DNA from: Mobula hypostoma
Lineage: Eukaryota
NCBI RefSeq assembly: GCF_963921235.1
Contig: NC_086108.1
Span: 23,188,001 to 23,252,000 of the forward strand
Length of the DNA: 64,000 nt
Direction of reading: 5' to 3'
Below the pieces are notes generated by a model. That model saw only the letters and a list, made by a program, of their open reading frames with translations. It was not told the DNA's origin and made no database searches. The position numbers and the translations under genes were made by a program. This document shows, piece by piece, positions 2,916 through 57,110 of the stretch; the stretch's first letter is position 1, and every line of letters starts with the position of its first letter.

Positions 2916-5239
2916 ACCAATGCCAGTGAAAGATTTCAAATAATTTGTGCTCCAGTCACCAAATTGCCAGCAACACACATCAAAGTTGCTTGAATTTCCA
3001 GCATCTGCAGAATTCCTGTTGTTTACCAAATTGCCAGGCCATTTTATCCACAGAGAAGCCTGCAGAGGTTGGTATTTTTATTTCACCAAGTTCATTGACT
3101 CGACTTTGAGAGGAAATTTATTCTTGGAGAATTTGGCAGCAGCATGTAAAGACTGATCTTTAAAATCCTTGACTCTCTTCCAGGCCTAGCTGCTCAGAAA
3201 CAAGCATGACATAATTTAGCCGACATTCATTCACCTGGACAGCAGGGCATAATTATTTCAGCAGATCATGAGCTTGTCACATCAGCACGTGCACTGCAGG
3301 AGCAAATATTTTCACTGCAGTGTACAATGTGCCCCTTGAGTTTTATTGAAGCCTTGCAGTTGGAAGAGTGGGCGCTTACTGAAGGCAGTTTCCAGGAGTA
3401 TAATTCACTGGCTGACAGGCTTCCCCCTGCTGTACTGAAAATTCATTGAGGCTCTTCTATGGAAAGATAGGCTTTGACAGATATGGTCGGGGATGAATAC
3501 TCTTGCAGCAATGCTGGATGTGTGTTAGCTGCTGTTGATGGGAGAATGGCAGAATATTGGGCAGACTGTGTATCTAATGTACATGTAAACTCAATAAGGC
3601 AGATTGTTTGACCGCATCATCTGCCACAACCTGCTTGCAGCTTGATCTGATAAACTTACCCGTGGTACAGTACAGATCCCACCTACTGTTCCTTTCAAGA
3701 AGCATCTGACAGTATATCACACAATCAATGACTTGGCAAATTTGATTTCTGTGGACTTAATGATCGAGAATGAAATTGGCTGCAAATCAGAGAGCAGAGA
3801 GTAATAATGAACTGCGCATTAGATCAGAGACAAATATACAGTGGCGTCTCCAAGCAATGGTATCAGGAGTACTGCACAACTTGAATCACTTCTCTCTTGA
3901 GATAGGGTTTCAAATGATGCAAGGCTTGGAACAGTCTTTCAAGAAAAGGCAGAGCAGAGTGGTGAAAAGGATAGGCATCTAGCAGGTAGAATCAGTGCGG
4001 GGTTGAGTGGGCTAGACTTTTACCCGTGTCACTGAATGTTCTAGAATGGTCGGGTGTGCCAGTGATGGAGGAAAGCAAAGAGGGCCTTGCCATGTGGTGG
4101 CATTGAATTATTGAAAGTCAGACTTGGTAATGCCTTGCTTGGTTAAATAGTATCCAGCTTATTTCAGTTTTCAAATACTACCTTATTCTGGAGCGTAAAA
4201 GCAAACCTGGATTCTAAATCCTGAATGGAAGATGAATCTTTATGCATCAAGGAGTGGGCAATAATATCAGTTTTGTTAAGTTGTATGATTGGCCTTTGTA
4301 CCTTAAGTTATTTGAATAACAAAAGTGACAGATGATGTGAATCTGAAAACAAAACAGTAACTGTTGGAAACAGTTCTCAGGGAAGGCAGTATATGTGGAC
4401 CTGAGCTCATCAGATCCAGAGTCCGAATCTCAGTGCGATGAATGTATGTTCAGTCTGCCTGATGAAGGGCGTTTCATCTTGTAGGATCTGTGCATGAAAA
4501 TTGGTCCCTTGAGTCAGATCCCCATGAGGCTTCAGCTCCAGTGAACTTGTGTTCCAGCAAGGCGTTGAGAGATCCTGAACTGTGGCTGGCCTGTCCTGAG
4601 ATTGAACTGCAGGGTAATACAAAGGGTAGCTCTCTTGCTGAAATAGTAACTCTTAGGTATTGGAGCACCTTGTCATTTGGGCTCTTGATTTGGCCGACTT
4701 GGGAATGGAGGCCACCAGGTGGTCTGATGCTACTCGAAACTGCTTTGTCACTCAGGCACCCATGGTGACCCCACTAGTCATTCTCTGCCAATTGTGCCCA
4801 TCTCAGCTAGTTGCTAGCCACTTGCCATAATGAGGCTTCTCTATACAACTTCAGTCATTTACCTACTTGGTGTGTCTAAGGGCATACAGAACACTCTACT
4901 ATTACCTTGCTTTTCTCTTGTTGCCTGGTTCTGTTGTTCCAGTGGAGAGGACCAAGCTATTGACATTGATTAACTTGAAGCAGTCACTGATGATTCTGCA
5001 ACCTATACTGGGTGCAGAGTTAGTAGCTTTTGTGCAGGTAGAGCTTTACCAAACTGGACAAGTACACTTAACCTCGGAGTGATACAGTTGAGAAATTGTG
5101 GGTGGGTGTGCTCTCAATCTGAGTTTGCAAATTTCTGGATGGTGTTACTTTGCGCAATAACTTTTCTTTCTATCTTCTTAATGAGCACATGAGTATTTCA
5201 GTGTCATGCCAAATTAAACTGGAGTCGTGCAGCAGGACT

Positions 5240-13291: not shown

Positions 13292-14356
13292 TTGAATTGA
13301 ATTGACTTTATTTCTTACATCCTTCATATACATGAGGAGTAAAAATCTTTACATTATGCCTCTGTCAGAATGTGCAATTCATTGTAATTTGTAATAAATA
13401 GTATGTACAATAGAACAGTAAATCTAGGATAGAAATACAATTGTATCAATGTGAATTAATCACTCTGATGGCCTGGTGGAAGAAGCTGTCCTGGAGCCGG
13501 TTAATCCTGGCTTTAATGCTGCGGTACTGTTTCCTGGATGGTAGCAGCTGGAACAGTTTGTGGTTCAGGTGACTTGGGTCCCCAATAACCCATTGGGCCC
13601 TTTTTATGCATTTGTCTCTGTAAATATCCTGAATGGTGGTAAGTTCACATCTGCAGATGGGCTGGGCTGTCCGCACCACTCTGTAGAGTCCTGCGATTGA
13701 GGGAAGTACAGTTCCCATACCAGGCAGTGATGCAGCCAATCAGGATGTTGTCAATTGTGCAGTAGAAAGTCCTTAGGATTTGGGGACTCATGCCAAACTT
13801 CTTCAACTGTCTGAGGTGATAGAGGTGCTGTTGTGCTTTTTTCACCACACAGTCGGCCTGTACAGACCACGTGAGATCCTCGATGATGCATATGCCGAGG
13901 AACTTAAAGCTGTTCACCCTCTCAACCCCAGATGCATTGATATCAATAGGGGCTAGCCTGTCTCCCTTCCTCCTGTAGTCCACAACCAGCTCCTTTGTTT
14001 TTGCAACAATGAGAGAGAGGCTGTTTTCTTGACACCACTGTGTCAGGGTGATGACTACTTCTCTGTAGGCTCTCTTGTTATTATTTGAGGTAAGGCCAAT
14101 CAATGTAGTGTCGTCAGTAAATTTAATTAGCAGGTTTGAGCTGTGGGTGCGACACAGTCATGGGTCTACAGAGAGTAAAGGAGGGGGCTTTTACATTTAA
14201 CATTTAACTGTCATTCATTCTTTGGGGACACTCATCCGTTTTCGTGGATGGTTGCAAAGAAAAATCATTTCAGGATGTATATTGTATACATTTCTTTGAC
14301 ATTAAATGTACCTTTGAAACCTTAGGACACAGCCCTGAGGGGCTCCTGTGTTGAGC
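13292..14356 (-). mobile_element. Rex1/Babar-type LINE 3' fragment, with a nested ~130-bp LINE tail (14191-14320, +)
   Basis: RT C-terminus WCQENSLSL...KTKELVVDYR...FKFLG...CITAWYGN. (caatt)n tail after aataaa. Host sequence gggggctt resumes as aggacacagccctgagg (PQGCV) after the insert. Confidence 0.85.
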
Positions 14357-14539: not shown

Positions 14540-14850
14540 TGCCCCCACCACCTCCCTCCCTTTCTTTCATGGCCCACTCTCCTGTCCTATCAGAATTTTT
14601 CTTCAGCTCTACATTTTCCACCTATCTCCTCCCAGCGTCTTACTTTGTCCCCAATGCCCCACCCACCTTCCCTCTCGCCTGACTTCACCTATGACCTGCC
14701 AGCCTGTGCTCCTCCCCTCCCCCACCTTCTTATCTTGGCTTCTTATCTTTTGGTCTTGGTGAGGGACTTGGTCCAAAACATCAACAGTTTATTTCTCTCC
14801 ATTGATGCTGCCTGACTTGCTGGTTTCCTCCAGTATTTTGTGTGTGAAGA
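14540..14850 (+). mobile_element. Penelope-like 3' UTR fragment with degenerate hammerhead
   Basis: Pyrimidine-rich UTR, then cttggtgagggacttggtccaaaacatcaac...gatgctgcctgacttgctg. Confidence 0.7.
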
Positions 14851-16464
14851 CTGGGTGGTGCCTGCCTGTGCAGGCCTGACAGAATCTGGAGGAATAAACG
14901 CTGGTGGAATTCTATACGTCAAGTAGCGTCTGTGGAGGGAAATGGACAGTCATCATGAAGGGCTAGCTGTCCATTTCCCTTCACAAATGCCAAGTGACTC
15001 ACTGAGTTCCGCCAGCAGTTTTTTTTGTTCTTGGCCTGAGTATCAGAGTATCAGATGGATGGATGCAGATTCAAACCCCTGCATCTCCAGTACTTTAAAT
15101 TCTAACTTTATTTCCCACACTCAACCAGCATCATGATCCAGTTTAATGAAAACTTGTCCTATGCTGGGCATTGGGCATCTTTCATACAGGGTGCTCAGTG
15201 AGTGGAGTAATTTTATATTTTCAGTCCTGGCTAGTTTACAATAGGAGTCCAGAAGGCTGCAACTTGCCCAAATGGGAGATGAGGAGCTGTTCCTTGAACT
15301 TGTGTGCAGTCACGTAATAGCAAAGTACCTTATTACTGGTTTGAAATCTAGTAGTGAACTGATATTTGTATTTGAATGTACAGTACCTTCTTGTGCTTCC
15401 AGTTTAAGAGCAAAAGTTACCTCTTAGTGTCCCTATAGTATAAGAATTGCTTTTCATTATGTACTTGGTAAGTTCATTCAGATCTATTTAACACAGCTAC
15501 ATTGTGCAGATATGAACCAACACCTATAAAGACTGGAAGTTTGTTAGCAGCATTTATACTTTGTTTGCAGAACATATCCGATACATCTCAAAAACCTAAG
15601 CTTAGGGGAAGAGAGGGGGAGCACCCTTCAGAAGCAGGAATGTAATTAAGAGTGTTCTGTCATACTAAAGTGCTCTCTGAAGGTGAAATTGCAGATATGT
15701 AATGTTTTTAAGATTAATGAATACAGTTCTCTTTTATGCTAATTATATGGATCCAGTGCATAATGTACTGTAACATTGGTATTTCTAATGGGATATATTG
15801 GTGGTGGTAATAGAATGGGTGTTAGATTGATGTAGTCATTATCTTTGTAAGATAACCTGCCTGCTACTGTGGAAGTGAGAAATTCTCTGGGTCATTAAAT
15901 ATAAAATTGTGGGTATTGGTGATGACAATTCTGGCTTGGCATTTAGAGCTGTTAATATTTTTCAGTACCAGTACGTGGAATGAACAGTTGGTTGACAAAT
16001 GAATTACAGTAGGAACACTGCCCAAATCACATAAAGTGGTAATATGATGTGAGAGGTTCCACAAGCACACTGTCAGTTCAGTTTTTCTGTGGGTTTTGAT
16101 CACAAGTTTTGAACAATTGTGTGTTTGGTAAATACTGAAATAATTTCATTACATTCATTGTTTGGTTGGTAGCGTCTTTTTTATAGTTACTCATGGGATG
16201 TTCACATGTTCTCCATCTCAGTTGTCCTTGAATGGATGGAACGCTTTGAGACAGTTAATGTATAAGCACAGAGTTTAGCAGACTAGGGGAATGAGAAACT
16301 CTGATTATACATGAAAAGTCAAGTGAAAGGAAGGAAGACAATCTTATGACAAGACAACATCTTCATGGTCAGTGAAGTACTTCTGAAATGCAGTGGCATT
16401 TGTGATGTGGGATATTGCTGAAGCCAATTTACTCTAAGATTCTGCAAATATTAATAGGACAATA

Positions 16465-16731
16465 TCGCAAAAACAAAGGAGCTGGTTGTGGATTACAGGA
16501 GGAATGGAGACCGGCTAACCCCTATTGACATCAATGGATCTGTGGTTGAGAGGGAAAACAGCTTTAAGTTCCTCGGCATACACATCACCGAGGATCTCAT
16601 GTGGTCTGTACACACCAGTTGTGTGGTGATAAAAAGCACAACAGCGCCTCTTTCACCTCAGATGGTTGAAGAAGTTTAGTAGGGGCACAATTGAGAGCAT
16701 CCTGACTGGCTGCATCACTGCCTGGTGTGGG
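16465..16731 (+). mobile_element. Rex1/Babar-type RT fragment fused to the 5' end of the Penelope-like element
   Basis: KTKELVVDYRRNGDRLTPIDING...FKFLGIHI...ESILTGCITAW. Very similar to the reverse complement of 13715-14005, with a ~30-bp internal deletion. Confidence 0.88.
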
Positions 16732-17262
16732 CCCCGTCCCTCTCTCTGCCACCAATCTGGGACTCACTCTCCACCATCTGCCAGGGACCTCTCCTACACT
16801 TCATTCTCCGTCGGATTCACACCTCCAAGAAGGACAACAAGCTCGCCCACCTGGAGCCCACGACGACAACTGGCTCCAGCCTGGACCAAAACCCCTCGGA
16901 CCGCTCTTACTGCTGCTGGGTCCTACCGCCCATCTTATTCTCCCACTACCCTCTTTCCTCCCATTGACTCCCAAACATCCCTCTATCCCTCATCGTCCAT
17001 CCATTCCTCTGATTCCCCATCCTCTCCCTCCTGAGACCACCCAGTCTTCACCCTCCTCCAACCCCAGCCCCAACCATTGCCATGTCTTCACCATCCCTGC
17101 TGACCTTCCTCTCTCTGAGGCAGAACATTCTGTCCTTAGCAAGGGCCTCACTTTTGTCCCCCTCCGTCCACACCTCAGTGAGTTCCGTGCCCGCCATGAT
17201 GTTGAACTCTTCTTCCGTCGCCTACGTCTCCGAGCCTGCTTCTTTGGCAAGGATTCCCTCCC

Positions 17263-19260
17263 CCTACTGATGACCCCTTCTCCTGTCTTCAACCCTCCTC
17301 CTCCTCCTGGACACCCCGCCCGGGCCTTCTACCTGCACTCGATCTCTTCATCTCCAACTGTCACCGAGACATCAACCGTCTCAACTTCACCACTCCTCTC
17401 TCCTGTTCCAACCTCACTCCCTCTGAACGCACTGCCCTCCACTCTCTCCGCACTAATCCAAACCTCACCATCAAACCTGCTGACAAAGGTGGTGCCGTAG
17501 TAGTCTGGCGGACGGACCTCTACCTCACTGAGGCCAAACGGCAGCTCTCTGACACCTCCTCTTACTTACCCCTGGAACAGGACCCCACCAAAAAACATCA
17601 AACCATTGTCTCCCGCACAATCACCGCCCTTATCAACTCCGGAGACCTTCCATCCTCAGCCGCTAAACTCATTATTCCCACACCCCGTACCGCTCGGTTT
17701 TACCTCCTCCCAAAGATACACAAGCCTGACTGTCCTGGCAGACCCATGGTTTCCGCCTGCTCCTGTCCCACTGAACTTGTATCTGCCTACCTGGACTCCA
17801 TTTTATCACCCATAGTTCAGTCTCTCCCCACCTCCATCCGGGATACATCCCATGCCCTCCACCTCTTCAATAACTTCCAGTTCCCCGGTCCCAACTGCTT
17901 CATTTTTACTATGGATGTCCAATCCTTATACACCTCCATTCACCATCAAGAAGGCCTTAAAGCCCTCCGCTACTTCCTGGATAATAGACCTCACCAGTTC
18001 TCCACCACCACTACCAACCTCCGGTTGGCGGAACTGGTTCTCACACTTAATAACTTCTCTTTTGGCTCTTCCTACTTCCTTCAGACTAAAGGTGTAGCTA
18101 TGGGAACTCGCATGGGACCCAGCTACGCCTGCCTCTTCGTTGGTTATGTGGAACAGTGTGTGCTCCAAACCTATTCTGGTACTGCTCCCCAACTTTTCCT
18201 TCGATACATTGACGACTACATTGGTGATGCTTCCTGCACCCATGCTGAGCTCGTCAATTTCATCGACTTTACTTCAAACTTCCACCCAGCCCTCAAATTC
18301 ACTTGGTCTATCTCTGACACTTCTCTCCCCTTTCTCGATGACTCGGTCTCCATCTCTGGAGACAGACTGTCCACTGACATCTTCTACAAGCCCACTGACT
18401 CTCAAAACTACCTCAACTATACCTCTTCCCACTCCGCCACATGCAAAAATGCCATTCCCTATTCCCAGTTCCTCCGTCTCCGCCGCATCTGCTCCCAGGA
18501 TGAGGCTTTCTGTTCCAGGACATCTCAAATGTCCTCTTTCTTTAAGGATTGTAGTTTCCCTTCTACGGTGATCAATAATGCCCTCACCCACATCTCCTCC
18601 ATTTCCTGCACTTCGGCCCTCACCCCGTCTTCCCACCACCACAACAGGGACAGGGTTCCCCTTGTCCTCACCTACCCCCCCTCCAGCCTCTGGATCCAGC
18701 ACATTATCCTCCACAACTTCCGCCGCCTTCAACAGGACCCCACCACTAAGCACATCTTTCCCTCTCCACCCCTCTCCACTTTCCACAGGGATCGATCCCT
18801 CTGCGACTCACTTATCCGCACGTCCATCCCCACGGATCTCCCACCCGGCACTTATCCCTGTAAGCGTAAGTGCTACACCTGTCCCTACACCTCCTCTCTT
18901 GCCACCATTCAGGGCCCCAAACAGTCCTTCCAGGTGAGGCAACACTTCACTTGCGAATCTGTTGGGGTCATCTATTGCATTCGGTGCTCCCGGTGTGGCC
19001 TCCTCTACATCGGTGAAACCCGACGCAGATTGGGGAACCGCTTCGTCGAGCACCTCCACTCCGTCCGCCACAACAGACAGGATCTCCCGGTAGCCATCCA
19101 CTTCAACTCTGCTTCCCATTCCCATTCAGATATGTCCATACATGGCCTCCTCTACTGCCATGATGAGGCTAAACTCAGGTTGGAGGAGCAACACCTCATA
19201 TACCATCTAGGTACTCTCCAGCCCCTTGGTATGAACATAGAATTCTCCAACTTCCGGTAA
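17263..19260 (+). pseudogene. Penelope-like RT/GIY-YIG open frame (about 665 codons), N-terminus frameshifted
   Basis: Same frame at 17461 (NLTIKPADKG) as the listed ORF from 17746. The upstream part lies in ORF 16727-17500. Confidence 0.85.
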
Positions 19261-19446
19261 TTCCCTCCCCCTCCCTTCCTCTATCTCTATTTCACATCAC
19301 CTCCCTCATAGTTCCGCCTCCTCCTACTGCGCATTGTTCTCCTGCCAATGACCTCCCTGCTTCCCCTCCCCCACCCCTTTGTCTTTCAAATTACTGTATT
19401 TTTCAGCTACCAGCATTCTTCAAACCCTCCCCAAAGTTCTTCCTTC

Positions 19447-19482
19447 AGTCCTGACGAAGGGTTTCGGCCCGAAATGTCGACT
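19447..19482 (+). ncRNA. Minimal type I hammerhead ribozyme motif
   Basis: AGUC-CUGACGA-A-GGGU(UUCG)GCCC-GAAA-UGUC^GACU. Stem I is AGUC/GACU, stem II has a UUCG loop, core nucleotides are conserved, and the predicted cleavage is after C19478. Confidence 0.85.
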
Positions 19483-19944
19483 AATCTTTTCAACTGATGC
19501 TGACTGACCTGCTGAGTTCCTCCAGCGCATTGTGAGTGTTCCTTTGACAACAGTATCTGCAGATTATTTTGTGTTTAATAGGACAATAACCAGATACTCT
19601 GCTTTTGTGATGCCGATTAAGGGATGAATACATACTAGGATGCAGAGTAACTGTTCTGCTCCCAGTATGTACAAATGTTTGTATTAAGAACACCCTTAAC
19701 TACATTCCTGCTCTGCTCTTATTAAATATTTTACATTTATTGATGGTTCTAACAAGTCATCTGAAAGATGTTGCTTCTGACAGCACATTTCCCTAACAAT
19801 ATCACACTATCTAGGTTACTTCTCAAGAGTTGAACCTACAAGCTGTTGACACAGATTCTGAAACAACGTTGGTGCTTTGAAACGCCAGTGAATTGAACCA
19901 AGCATTAGCAGTAGGAAATAATTGCTCAGAAGTACAAACACTTG

Positions 19945-20115
19945 GTCGGTACAGTGGCATTTCTAGTAGATCTGCCTCACTGCTCCACCAACAGGAGTTC
20001 ACTCCTGACCTCGGGTGCTATTTGTGTGGAGATTTCATGCTCTCCTTACAACTGCATGTCCTTCCTGTGAGTGCTTCAATTCCCTTCCACATCTGAGGGA
20101 TGTGTGCGTTAGTGG
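19945..20115 (+). mobile_element. HE1/V-SINE-like SINE 5' part
   Basis: gagttcactcctgacctcgggtgctatttgtgtggag. Confidence 0.65.
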
Positions 20116-21567
20116 AACGTAGAATATGGAACAGGCCCTTCAGCCCACTATGCAGTACTGAGCTTGGTGCAAATCTAAACTAATCCCATCTACCTGCACA
20201 CAGTCAATATTCCTCTATTCCCTGCTATATTCTCTATTCTAGGTTGATACAAATTGCCCTTAGTGTGTGGGTGAGTGATGCATTTTGGGCAGAGCTGGTA
20301 AGAAAGTGGGGAGAATAAAATGGGACAAGTACAGGATTAGTGCGCATACTGTCAGTGTGTGATGATTGGCATGGTGTTAGTGAGATGAGGGACCTGCTTG
20401 CACTGTGTATCATTGAATGTGAATATGCGTGTATCTGAGAGAGAGAGAGAGAGAACAAACTGCTTATTGTTGTGGAACCAGGGCATGCAGAGAAACCATC
20501 CTCATATATCCAGGTAATAGTGGATGTGGCCAGTGAATGGAGTAGAGGCAAGTGAAGTGGCCTAGCATCATCTGACTCTGGAAAGCTACGAAACGCTAGC
20601 TTAGAATGTTTGTGGGTGAAACAGAAGAATGTAACAGGTCAGTAAAAGATAGATGCAAGGGGCAGGATAATACACACTGATAATGGCACTAAATGGAATC
20701 CCTTGGCCTGTATCCAGGGGCAGGCAAGAGGGAAAAAGCAGGTAGTACAGACCACAAACAGGCTGTGGGTGGAGTGCTGCTTACAATTTTTTTGATGAAA
20801 TAGTACTTATTTGATGAGTATACAACGAAACTTCCAGGGATTGGTGTTTCATTCAATAGGATGCAGGAGTGACTTGACGGAACTCAAATTCTGTAGGCTT
20901 TTGCTGAGGAAGATGTTGAATTACAGGTTTCCATTTGTCGGAAGAAGCCCCTTATTGTACTTATTGTTGTGTTTGTGTTTCCTAAGTCTGGAAGCTGTTC
21001 AGGTTGTAAACAGAATGGAATATTCATTACAACGTCATAAGAGGTCTACAATACAGTAACAGAATGGGATCTTGTGTGTTAACCCTTCCCCACCCTGATC
21101 ACCAGTGCTTCAGTCCTAAACATGTCTTCAACTACCCACCACTCTGGGATAACTCCATGGGAGAGACAAAAACATGGAGGAAAGTTCCCAGCAATTTTTG
21201 GATCAGCAATCTGGAGAACACTCATCGCAATACTGGCAACTTGGTGACTCTGAGCAGTAGAATTACTGGTTAAGTACCTAACAGGTTGACCAAAGTCCTT
21301 GGGTGAAAGCAAATTGCAATCCTTCCTTGGTCAGCCCTGTAGGTGAATTTCATTCCACACCATCACTGTTCAGTCACAATGATATTGAGTTACATTCAAA
21401 CCCACAGCAGAGTGTAACTGGTGATGGTGTCATAAATACTGACTCTAGTGGTGTTCTGCACACCCTGAGAAAGCTATCAAATGCAGCAGTTCTTCTACAT
21501 CTATTATTATACTTTCCTGCACAATCTCCTCCAATCCATTTAATGATTTGTTTTCTTGTTGAAAATG

Positions 21568-27242: not shown

Positions 27243-29330
27243 CCATAACACTATAAAACACAGAAGCAGAATTAGGCCATTTGACCCATCAAGTCTATCC
27301 CACGAGTCTTTCCAGCCATTCGACCATATCTGACCTATTTTCCCTCCAACTCTATTCTCCTGCCTTCTCCTTGTAAATCTTAACGGGTTTATTAATCAAG
27401 AACTTATTAACCTTTGATTTAAATATACCCAAATGACTTGGCCTCTATAGCAGTCTGTGACAGTGAATTCCACAGATTCGCCACTCTCTCGCTGAAGAAA
27501 TTCCTTTTCACCTCTGTTCTAAAGGGATGTCCTTCTTTTCTGAAGCTGTGTCCTCTGGTCCTAGCTTCTGCTACAATTGGAAACATCCCCTCTACATCCA
27601 CTCTATCTGGACCTTTCAATATTCAGTAGGTTTCAATGAGATTCCCACTCACTCTTCTAAACTTCAACGAGTACAGGCCAAGAGCCATCAGATCTTACTC
27701 ATGCAGTAACCTTTTAATTTTTGGGATCATTCCTGTAAACATCCTTTGGACCCTGTCCAATGCCAGCACATCCTCTCTTAGACAAGAGAAAATCCGCAGA
27801 TGCTGGAAATCTGAGCAACACACACAAAATGCTGGAAGAACTCAGCAGGCCAGGCAGCATCTATGAAAAAGAGTAAAGTTGACGTTTTGGGCCAAGACTC
27901 TTCATCAGAGCTGGTTCTGATGAAGGATCTCGGCCTGAAACATTTACGGTTTACTCTTTTCCGCAGATGCAGCCTGGCTTGCTGAGTTCCTCTAGCATTT
28001 TGTGTGCATTGCTTTGTGCCTTTGTAGCTTGTCAAAAGCCTTCTGATAGGCCAAATAAACAAGATCCACTCACTCTCCTCTGTTTTTCCTGCCTGTTATT
28101 TCATCAAAGGATTCCAACAAGTTTGGCAGGTAATATTTTCCCTTAAGGAAATCATGCTGATTTCCACCTGTTTTATCATGTGCCACTCAGTAACCTGAAA
28201 CCTCATCTTTAATAATGGACTCCAACATCTTAGCACCCACTGGTCAGGTTAACTGGCGTATCATTTCTTGTCTTTTGCCTGCCTCCCTTCTTAAAGAATG
28301 ATGTGATAGTTTCAATTTTCCAGTCCTCTGGAGCCATATTAGAATCTAGTTTCTTGAAAGATCACGACTAATACCTCCACAATCTATTCAGCCACAGTTG
28401 CTTCATCCTCCCTTTAAAATGCTGCTACTTCTTTGGGTTGAACCAATTTTGCATCTTCTGAATTACTCCCAGAAATTTCAGCCATTGCTGCTCTGCCATC
28501 ATTCCCGCTAGTGTGCCCTTCCAATCAACTTTGACCAGCTCTTCTCTCATGATTCTGTAGTTACCTTTACTCCATGATAATACTGAAACATCTGATTTTA
28601 GCTTCTCCCTCTCAAGCTGCAAGGTAAATTCTATCATGTTATGATCATTGCCTCTTATGAGTTCCTTTACCTCAAGCTTCTGAATTCAATCTGGTTCATT
28701 AAACAACACCAAATCCAGAATTGTCTTTTCCCTGGTGGGCTAGAACACAAGGTACTCTAAAAAACTATCTCATAAACATTCTATGAATTCCTTCCCCTGG
28801 CATGCAGCAGCAACATAATTTTTCTAGTCTGCTTGCATATTGAAATTTCCCATGACCATCAAAACATTGCCCTTTTTACAGGCCTTTTCTATATCCTGTT
28901 GCAATCTGTACCCCACATCTTGGCTACTGTTCAGAGGCCTGTATATAATTCTCATTCGGGTCTTTTTACCCTCGCTGTTTCTTAACTCTACCCACAAAGG
29001 ATTCTGGATCGTCTGATCCTATATCACTTCTTTCACAGGATAAGATTTTATTTTTTACCAACAGAGCCACCCCACCCCCTCTGTTACCTGCCTGAACTTT
29101 CAATATTATATGCATCCTTGGATGCTTAACTCCCAGCTGTTATCTTCTTTCAACCATGACTCAGTGATGCCCACACATCATACTTGCCAATTTCTAACTG
29201 CGCTGTAAGTTCATCTACCTTATTTTGTATACCGTATGCATTGAGATATGGCACTTTATAGTCCGGCATTCACCTCTCTTCGTTTCACTCTTCTTTTCGT
29301 TTAAAGCCCTATCCACAGCCCTTGTTTGTA
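27243..29330 (-). mobile_element. Decayed CR1 LINE (endonuclease to 3' tail) with deletions and a nested fold-back insertion
   Basis: Colinear with the 5763-8480 copy. RTRGHSFRKEGHPFRTEVKRNFFSERVANLWNSL. Confidence 0.85.
27782..28013. mobile_element. Penelope-derived fold-back element with two divergent hammerhead cores
   Basis: Arms cacacaaaatgctggaagaactcagcaggccaggcagcatct / agatgcagcctggcttgctgagttcctctagcattttgtgtg. Cores TCATCAG at 27902-27908 and CTGATGA at 27917-27923. Confidence 0.85.
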
Positions 29331-53720: not shown

Positions 53721-53907
53721 AACAGGAGAAAATCTGCAGTTGCTGCAAATCCAAGCAACACACACAAAGTGCTGGAGGAACTCAGCAGGCCAGGCAGCAA
53801 TTACAGAAAGAAGTACTGCCGAAGGGTCTCGGTCCAAAACGTCGACTATTCTTTTTGCCATAGTTGTTGCCTGGCTGCTGAGTTCCTCCTACATTTTGTG
53901 CGTGTTG
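53721..53907. mobile_element. 187-bp Penelope-derived fold-back element with 14-bp TSD
   Basis: Inverted arms caacacacacaaagtgctggaggaactcagcag / ctgctgagttcctcctacattttgtgcgtgttg. Flanks are CCATCTCTGTCACT (53707-53720) and CCATCTCCATCACT (53908-53921). Confidence 0.85.
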
Positions 53908-56764: not shown

Positions 56765-57110
56765 GTCTCCTCCCCCTTCCCTTTCTTCCATGGCCTTCTG
56801 TTCTCTCCTTATCAGATTCCCCCTTTTCCAGCCCTTTATCCCTTTCACCAATCAACTTCCCAACTCTTTAATTCACCCCTCCCCTTCTCCTGTTTTCACC
56901 TATCACCTACTACCTTGTGTTTCTTCCTCCCCTCTCCTCACCTCCTTACTTTTGACTTCTCATCTTTTCTTCTCCAGTCCTGATGAAAGGCCTTGGCCTG
57001 AAACATCCATGTTTATTATTAACCATAGCTGCTGCCTGGCTCGCTGAGTTCCTTCAGCATTTTGTGTGTGTTGTTTGGATTTCCAGTATCTGCTGATTTT
57101 CTCTCGTTTG
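56765..57110 (+). mobile_element. Penelope-like 3' UTR with decayed hammerhead
   Basis: agtcCTGATGAaaggccttggcctGAAAcatc at 56976-57007, followed by the shared terminus ...ttccagtatctgctgattttctc. Confidence 0.85.

Follow-up and report, generated by a model that had tools for sequence, protein, structure and literature searches.

How a piece of a LINE came to lie against a Penelope-like element within a single target-site duplication is the question raised by this locus of Mobula hypostoma. As had been described beforehand, TTAATAGGACAATA occurs exactly at positions 16451–16464 and again at 19575–19588 of the window (the whole stretch of DNA analysed, 64 kb in length); no third site was found in the window when up to one mismatch was allowed, and two matches were obtained in none of the shuffled controls (0/100). 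These two + strand copies of the 14-bp target-site duplication enclose, in 5′ to 3′ order, an internal piece of a Rex-type LINE (16465–16731) and a 5′-truncated, non-inverted Penelope-like element (16729–19577), both of them also on the + strand. The last 4–5 bases of the left copy (CAAT/CAATA) fit the LINE as well, and the right copy begins with TTA, 3 bases that equally fit the usual 3′ end of the Penelope-like element. The evidence leads us to conclude that the 267-bp young Rex-type LINE piece was very probably carried in as the 5′ cargo of one insertion made by Penelope, because the duplication is a signature of this Penelope and is hardly ever found at copies of the LINE.

The LINE piece of 267 bp covers the end of the reverse transcriptase (RT) and the thumb region, without a 3′ tail. 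The preliminary description had presented it as a tail-less LINE RT fragment joined at about 16731 to a 5′-truncated Penelope on the same strand, which stands with the refinement that GGG at 16729–16731 fits both elements. Among the LINE family copies examined, 25 of 29 continue for ~425 bp past the end of the piece, to an AATAAA-(TCAAT)n tail, and longer copies match RVT_1 and PF09004 above cut-off. Two traits of Rex1/Babar LINEs, an RT of the non-LTR kind and a 3′ tail of short tandem repeats, are seen in the family; the Rex1/Babar label itself is presumed from the TIESILTGCITAWYG motif and from the earlier naming. It is an abundant family, with 5904 exact genome matches for one 22-mer. Relative to the family, the piece bears a 1-bp insertion near 16630 and a 30-bp deletion after 16680; the latter has one occurrence in the genome (≤2 mismatches), and no source copy with the same deletion was found. 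The piece differed from two family majorities at 7/255 and 9/254 non-CpG positions, and of 22 copies scored in a position-ordered sample, 21 were further from the majority than the piece, as expected of an active element and not of a random old copy. A neighbouring LINE copy, situated 2.3 kb away at 13293–14190, was rejected as the template (10.2% different from the piece, vs 4.9% for the nearest copy compared).

The Penelope-like element lacks ~350 bp of the family 5′ end. It contains a stop-free frame of 684 aa (17206–19260, + strand) with an RT and, at the C terminus, a GIY-YIG domain, and this frame is severed from its upstream part by a frameshift, a 1-bp deletion near 17255. RVT_1 (E 4e-6, aa 171–339) and GIY-YIG (E 3e-4, aa 587–661) were both matched in the frame with scores slightly below the Pfam curated cut-offs, and two cysteines are present between GIY and YIG (GVIYCIRCSRCGLLYIG in the translation); an RT and such a nuclease in one frame characterise EN+ Penelope-like elements. 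The linker that precedes the endonuclease carries a C-x3-C-x2-C motif, CKRKCYTC (18859–18882, + strand), of the Neptune/Nematis type. A CX2-5CxxC motif in the RT–nuclease linker defines the Neptune/Nematis clades (PMC8557442), and from this motif the element appears to belong to that type. Family copies have their 3′ end upstream of the ORF as well (pseudo-LTR) and as inverted arms, an inverted arm being present in ~60 of 99 sibling copies, whereas the chimeric copy has only the 3′ one. Within this 3′ terminal repeat, words found by eye at 19451–19474 (+ strand; CTGACGA, a short stem and GAAA) resemble the core of a hammerhead ribozyme, which in EN+ Penelope-like elements lies in the pseudo-LTR; the repeat gave no Rfam match at the gathering score, and its folding was unremarkable (z 0.41). 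The nominal divergence of the LINE piece, 2.8–3.5%, is greater than that of the Penelope body, 1.9% (38 of 1992 non-CpG positions different from the family majority), and in an age comparison the two were similar (P 0.34 and 0.10 for the two LINE majorities).

As for the origin of the duplication, 62 of 99 sibling Penelope termini had a duplication of at least 12 bases at the element edge, the commonest length being 14 (21 copies), and 28 of the 99 had no duplication; the swapped-flank control gave 0/196. By contrast, only 1 of 25 LINE family copies had a duplication of at least 12 bases, that one being a tail microsatellite (P 4e-8 for Penelope vs LINE copies). The site before insertion is seen in a related organism, here D, where one contig joins 16182–16450 to 19575–20400 with a single 14-mer and no extra letters. 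The claim that the old flank, presumed to be SINE-like, reads through when the interval is removed holds in this contig, which also provides the orthologous empty site recommended earlier as a check, and one old copy of the flank repeat elsewhere aligns across the rejoined site (65% identity, E 2e-4); when the genome was queried with the right flank, and then with this paralogous repeat, each matched itself only. A second related organism, B, has one contig running from the left flank into the LINE, to 16489 (25 element letters), and another that starts within the end of Penelope, at 19555, and passes into the right flank (20 element letters), overlaps that are below the 31-letter guide in contigs with a depth of 3.7 and 2.7. 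Taken together, the empty site of D, the outer junctions of B, the Penelope-typical duplication and the similar ages give good support to the proposal that both pieces arrived in a single event. No allele with the LINE piece and no Penelope, or other intermediate, was seen in the contigs compared. Among the matches listed for organisms A and B, those of the likely source sample included, no contig crosses the inner junction or reads through the deletions described below (including 16600–16960), and both could therefore postdate the insertion.

Shared bases were found at all three joins: CAAT/CAATA at the target, GGG inside and TTA at the 3′ end. The inner GGG (16729–16731, + strand) lies where the family majorities read TATGGG for the LINE and TACGGG for Penelope, 5/6 alike, and the junction is unique, with 1 match in the 3.48-Gb genome at ≤2 mismatches. 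Downstream of it, Penelope bears three deletions at 16819–17021 (+ strand), of 30 bp (near 16823), ~224 bp (near 16898) and 38 bp (near 17021). They are private to the chimeric copy among the loci examined, and most have 2–8 shared bases at their ends, which are short and missing against some reference copies. The preliminary description had mentioned neither the indels of the LINE and Penelope nor the Penelope frameshift. All four deletions of at least 10 bp fall within the first 560 bases, while the last 2.5 kb is free of them (~0.5 expected, P ~0.002, a value for a cluster that was spotted before the test and against a background rate that undercounts large alignment-breaking deletions); background deletions in this genome amount to 0.3–0.9 per kb of repeat. 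This crowding at the 5′ end suggests an enzyme hopping between templates.

The best reading of the locus, which we hold at about even chances, is that the Penelope RT slipped onto RNA of an active Rex-type LINE, the switch likely having occurred near the end of the copying of Penelope RNA. The Penelope GIY-YIG nuclease would cut the two strands of AT-rich DNA with a stagger of 14 bases, and the RT, beginning at the 3′ end of the Penelope RNA, would copy ~2.5 kb of it with no skips. It would then repeatedly lose its template and re-anneal via 2–8 shared bases, skipping 38, ~224 and 30 bases, until at TACGGG it would re-anneal to TATGGG in same-sense LINE RNA, of which ~300 bases would be copied with one 30-base skip; the end of the copy would pair with CAAT at the upper cut of the target, and repair would close the gap. 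In vitro, the site where a Poseidon-clade Penelope RT initiates has no homology to the cut DNA (PMC11167929), so that the overlap at TTA does not have to reflect homology used in priming. The LINE piece carries no intron or other mark of RNA, and its having the same sense as Penelope gives only a 2:1 argument for an RNA template over DNA. We tentatively extend this reading to five hops of the Penelope RT via short shared words in the last 560 bases, one of them into a different retroelement class, onto LINE mRNA, with Penelope RTs being promiscuous internal switchers, an extension that is possible but leaves us more doubtful than convinced. Priming of a LINE RT on the upper cut end was rejected, since the piece would then be antisense and begin at the LINE tail.

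Identical structure, orientation and shared bases are also predicted if the LINE piece was a patch of DNA, in which case the upper 3′ end of the target (CAAT) would anneal to a LINE copy, either cDNA or young genomic DNA, be extended by a host repair polymerase or the RT and be joined to the Penelope cDNA at GGG, the whole still being one Penelope-made insertion. Such a patch could draw on thousands of genomic copies of the LINE family, short fillers of 17–18 bases do exist in 2 of 62 sibling insertions, and for fish LINEs one study reports extra 5′ nucleotides and host-factor-dependent annealing-type 5′ joins (PMC4245944); however, the extras in that study are mostly derived from the flanks, and few of the sampled copies are as little diverged as the LINE piece. 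The exclusion of the neighbouring LINE copy, the lack of any copy found with the deletion of the piece, and the skips to either side of the junction, as would suit a single enzyme, also weigh against a patch, which we regard as rather unlikely. Alternatively, the RNA may have been chimeric before it was copied, as a read-through transcript of a donor Penelope in or just behind a LINE, with the junction representing the 5′ edge of the donor, an extra skip or a later deletion. Penelope copies have indeed landed in LINEs in this genome (L098, L181), carrying of host DNA mediated by Penelope is described for a rotifer (PMC3846280), and the inner junction looks like the adjacent deletions, but among surviving, assembled copies with at most 2 probe mismatches, a LINE family copy within 1.5–2 kb upstream was found at none of 98 loci, which account for 99 of 120 further copies of the Penelope region, and none of the loci examined shares any of the four private deletions of Penelope and the LINE. 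We consider this origin improbable. Of the two routes contemplated in the preliminary description, template switching is favoured, and the amplifying chimeric family is rejected, because the proposed comparison of the junction with the genome returned its single match, pointing to a one-off, and not several sites, and no donor was found at the loci examined.

Two successive insertions would require either a LINE landing at the 5′ edge of Penelope and then losing its 3′ part, or Penelope landing where a newly inserted LINE copy had its 3′ edge and deleting ~425 bp of it. Later inserts within Penelope copies exist (2/99, L138 and L151), termini without duplication are frequent as given above, and deletions are common in this genome at the background rate given above; yet a second element would have to strike the edge of the duplication to within a few bases, and an additional deletion would have to follow, all between the split of D and that of A and B, 14-bp duplications are not made by the LINE copies, and the intermediate allele is absent from the contigs compared. 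This makes two insertions very unlikely. Finally, an assembler might have fused two repeats in the interior, where the inner junction is crossed by no contig among the matches listed, even for the likely source sample, but contigs from flank into LINE and from Penelope into flank are found in two organisms, so that the LINE-to-Penelope transition must lie between these outer junctions, and we give mis-assembly hardly any credence. The survey of 5′ junctions for foreign sequence, also proposed beforehand, came back empty: long foreign 5′ DNA was found in 0/64 sibling Penelope copies with a duplication, and this type of event is therefore rare. Three candidate long 5′ captures were discarded, L138 and L151 being inverted Penelope arms broken by later inserts and L097 being at chance level (control 5/196).

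For U6/L1 chimeras, a route through RNA ligation is known. Template-switch chimeras have been reported for the L1, L2 and RTE clades, and internal switching for U5 (PMC4476161). As in the U6/L1 chimeras described there, the foreign piece at this locus lies 5′ of a truncated retroelement, in the same sense and within one duplication; unlike in them, the carrier is a GIY-YIG Penelope, its passenger comes from the interior of a retroelement of another class, and the copy is single and not recurrent. The capture by Penelope in the rotifer Adineta vaga (PMC3846280) likewise shows foreign sequence in a Penelope-made duplication, an empty allele and 5′ microhomology joins, but its cargo lies between terminal repeats, whereas the cargo here lies outside Penelope, against the target, and no 5′ terminal repeat is present. 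With the inverted (head-to-head) EN+ Penelope insertions presented in PMC8557442 the locus shares 5′ truncation, the C-terminal GIY-YIG, the linker zinc-finger motif and the variable duplication, except that the inverted arm is missing and a same-sense LINE piece occupies its usual place. The 5′ joins of fish LINEs also show microhomology and additional sequence, although these extras are several nucleotides long (PMC4245944) and mostly come from the flanks, in contrast to 267 bp of another element. No published Penelope–LINE chimera was found in the literature searched, which comprised main texts only and few subscription papers. The general kind is already in print, both as foreign cargo in Penelope insertions and as 5′ chimeras in LINE insertions.

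The chimeric copy is a frameshifted, dead one-off that has not spread, and the locus is a useful case and not a new system. How a Penelope-like insertion is completed is an unsettled question (PMC11167929, PMC8557442), for which the locus, with its empty site in a related organism, provides a clean, dated case showing that the 5′ side of a Penelope insertion can be closed by sequence from a different class of retroelement. Joins of this type give mobile elements one way to exchange parts.

The 14-mer TTAATAGGACAATA occurs exactly at 16451-16464 and 19575-19588, as the preliminary description had claimed for a target-site duplication around the chimera; no third match was found within the 64-kb window, part of contig C50, with up to one mismatch allowed, and two matches appeared in 0 of 100 shuffles. 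Between the repeats lie a LINE piece (16465-16731) and a Penelope-like element (16729-19577). The Penelope 3′ end was probed with an exact 33-base word, which gave 367 genome matches; the first 100 (contigs C1, C2, C5 and C9) were fetched, and leaving out L121, an internal repeat, 99 termini were scored. A direct repeat of at least 12 bases (up to one mismatch) was present at the Penelope 5′ edge in 62 of these 99 (6, 11, 21, 11, 6, 4, 2 and 1 copies for 12, 13, 14, 15, 16, 17, 18 and 20 bases, respectively), compared to 0/196 in a swapped-flank control, and the remaining termini had only a short repeat (6), no repeat (28) or a distant repeat (3). The distant repeats were rejected as captures: two are inverted Penelope arms interrupted by later inserts and the third is at chance level. 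For the LINE, 29 copies were fetched by likeness to the query and 4 without a tail of their own were dropped; a repeat of 12 was seen in one of the other 25, and that one is tail microsatellite. The 14-base duplication is thus the mark of Penelope, not of the LINE (P = 4e-8).

The LINE piece is an internal fragment of an abundant non-LTR family (one 22-mer: 5904 exact genome matches), whose longer copies match RVT_1 and PF09004 and whose end, AATAAA-(TCAAT)n, lies ~425 bp beyond the captured piece. The family is putatively Rex1/Babar, a label drawn from the protein motif. A second, older copy with a tail lies at 13293-14355 on the minus strand, where 130 bp of a different repeat split it at ~14190-14320; this neighbour (13293-14190, 2.3 kb upstream) was rejected as the source, being 10.2% off the piece versus 4.9% for the nearest fetched copy.

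The Penelope copy carries a stop-free frame of 684 aa with RT and, at its C-terminus, GIY-YIG, both with profile scores slightly below the cut-off, and has a frameshift near 17255. Its linker has a C-x3-C-x2-C motif, a type assigned to Neptune and Nematis in PMC8557442. It ends at the same 3′ place as its siblings, matches them at 90–96% identity over long matches, and is indeed 5′-truncated, with ~350 bp of the family 5′ end absent. An inverted arm was flagged in about 60 of the 99 sibling termini (script count 62, a few matches being older related repeats), and the LINE piece occupies its place in the window copy. Across these termini (L093-L192) the inverted arms usually start 30–45 bases inside the 3′ terminus, and their overlap with the direct arm may reach hundreds of bases, as in L138, so that head-to-head insertions seem to be two separate cDNAs joined. 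Both L138 arms lack the same 66–67 bp (region 4034-4983), and the deletion was therefore already in the RNA template; its inverted arm also holds a 440-bp younger repeat inserted later. A 320-bp piece within the Penelope copy of L151 (~1720-2040), surrounded by short direct repeats and unmatched in other loci, looks like a later insertion. Long copies at 97.1–98.1 Mb of C1 (L227-L232, L269) cluster in pairs ~14 kb apart and one variant probe sequence is common to the small contigs C152, C162, C175 and C193 (L309-L312), which suggests Penelope copies within larger duplicated units. Short matches of 70–81% to the 3′ terminal repeat at window 14700-14850, 27791-28016, 53731-53906 and 56967-57098, some back-to-back, are older relatives or derived short elements.

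At all three joins, bases are common to both partners. On the right, TGTGTTTA, the usual Penelope terminus, runs into the repeat by three bases; on the left, CAAT(A), the end of the repeat, also fits the LINE, whose copies there mostly read CCTCAATG, with CCTCAATA in 3 of those matched. At the inner join (~16731) GGG fits both elements, and the six bases seen most often there are TATGGG for the LINE (31 copies) and TACGGG for Penelope (32 copies). Annealing-type joins and extra 5′ nucleotides are described in PMC4245944. Four deletions fall within the first 560 bases, 30 in the LINE piece and 30, ~224 and 38 in Penelope, with 0–8 bases common to their ends depending on the reference copy, and the last 2.5 kb has no deletion of at least 10 bp against three long siblings. 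With background densities of 0.27–0.37 per kb in Penelope copies against 0.90 per kb in LINE copies, ~0.5 would be expected (P ~0.002, the test following notice of the cluster and the background undercounting large deletions). Deletions of at least 10 bp are ~3 times denser in LINE copies (L194-L223) than in Penelope copies, as fits a higher average age of the LINE copies.

Non-CpG differences from the family majority were 7/255 (nearest 29 copies) or 9/254 (30 copies in genome order) for the LINE piece and 38/1992 for the Penelope body; the LINE is nominally higher and the gap not significant (P = 0.34 and 0.10). The Penelope 5′ part differs by 3.9% from a mixed majority, with private changes of 3/149, 3/184 and 2/270 against the ten nearest copies. 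Among the genome-order LINE copies, 22 of 30 were scorable (3.0–8.7%, median near 6), and one of the 22 is less diverged than the captured piece (3.5%). The template was either a young LINE copy or an active element's RNA or cDNA.

Searching public runs with the left flank turned up organism A, the likely source sample, together with the relatives B and D; a small share also came from C. The orthologous empty site, whose inspection had been proposed, is present in D, where a 1144-base contig runs through 16182-16450 and passes on to 19575-20400 with zero letters between, leaving a single 14-mer copy. In B, a left-flank contig reaches 25 letters into the LINE piece (depth 3.7) and another begins 20 letters within the Penelope end and enters the right flank (depth 2.7), both overlaps being shorter than the 31-letter guide and both contig ends coinciding with those of A's own contigs. 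With LINE at left and Penelope at right in B, the insertion therefore dates between the D split and the A/B split (flank difference from A: 2.8% for B, 4.3% for D). As described before, the flanks read through without the interval: at another place, one old copy of a repeat aligns at 65% over the rejoined site. An inverted match of 26–36 bp (86–92% alike) at 15633-15668 and 19678-19712, either side of the insertion, probably represents fragments of a small, old repeat.

The empty site in D, the outer junctions in B and the Penelope-type duplication uphold the earlier view that both pieces arrived together, and we consider a single event, all such routes combined, very probable; two insertions are improbable, and a mis-assembled interior is more improbable still. 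Among the filtered contigs listed for A and B over 16600-16960, none crosses the inner junction, and the genome search proposed for that junction gave one match in the 3.48-Gb assembly at up to two mismatches, as did the LINE deletion junction. The weights given to these readings, like those below, are judgements and not computed.

The best route, which we hold about evenly balanced, is that the Penelope RT switched onto LINE RNA. The Penelope nuclease would cut the target 14 bases apart and the RT would copy 2.5 kb, then start skipping via short common words and jump at TACGGG/TATGGG to a same-sense LINE RNA, and the copy end would be tied to the target via CAAT. A Penelope protein from a lizard is shown to cut as well as extend both strands and to prefer AT-rich DNA, later steps being left untested there (PMC11167929; PMC10760644 and PMC7599744 are background only). 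A DNA patch during 5′ repair, with either LINE cDNA or a young copy in the genome as donor, is an unlikely alternative origin of the piece, and a chimeric read-through RNA is slightly less likely than that, its donor being lost or outside the listed matches. A probe placed slightly within the 5′ part of Penelope gave 121 matches, and in 98 loci covering 99 of the 120 other copies (21 outside the listing) neither the same LINE family within 1.5–2 kb upstream of Penelope, nor the inner junction, nor any of the four deletions was found; two 67% upstream matches belong to an older family.

In the proposed survey of sibling 5′ junctions for foreign sequence, the longest fillers were 17 and 18 bases, and long foreign DNA between duplication and element was found in 0/64 siblings with a defined duplication (upper bound ~4.6%; 28 unscorable copies without one lie outside the count). 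Rotifer Penelopes are described as carrying host DNA flanked by terminal repeats, with an empty allele as the check (PMC3846280). The main texts searched, mostly open-access, gave no account of a Penelope insertion that starts with a LINE piece on its 5′ side. Template-switch chimeras of L1, L2 and RTE LINEs likewise lie inside one duplication (PMC4476161), whereas the carrier here is Penelope. The chimera is real, well bounded and dated, and is dead and single-copy; 5′ capture in retro-insertions is already known, and this locus adds a different form of it.
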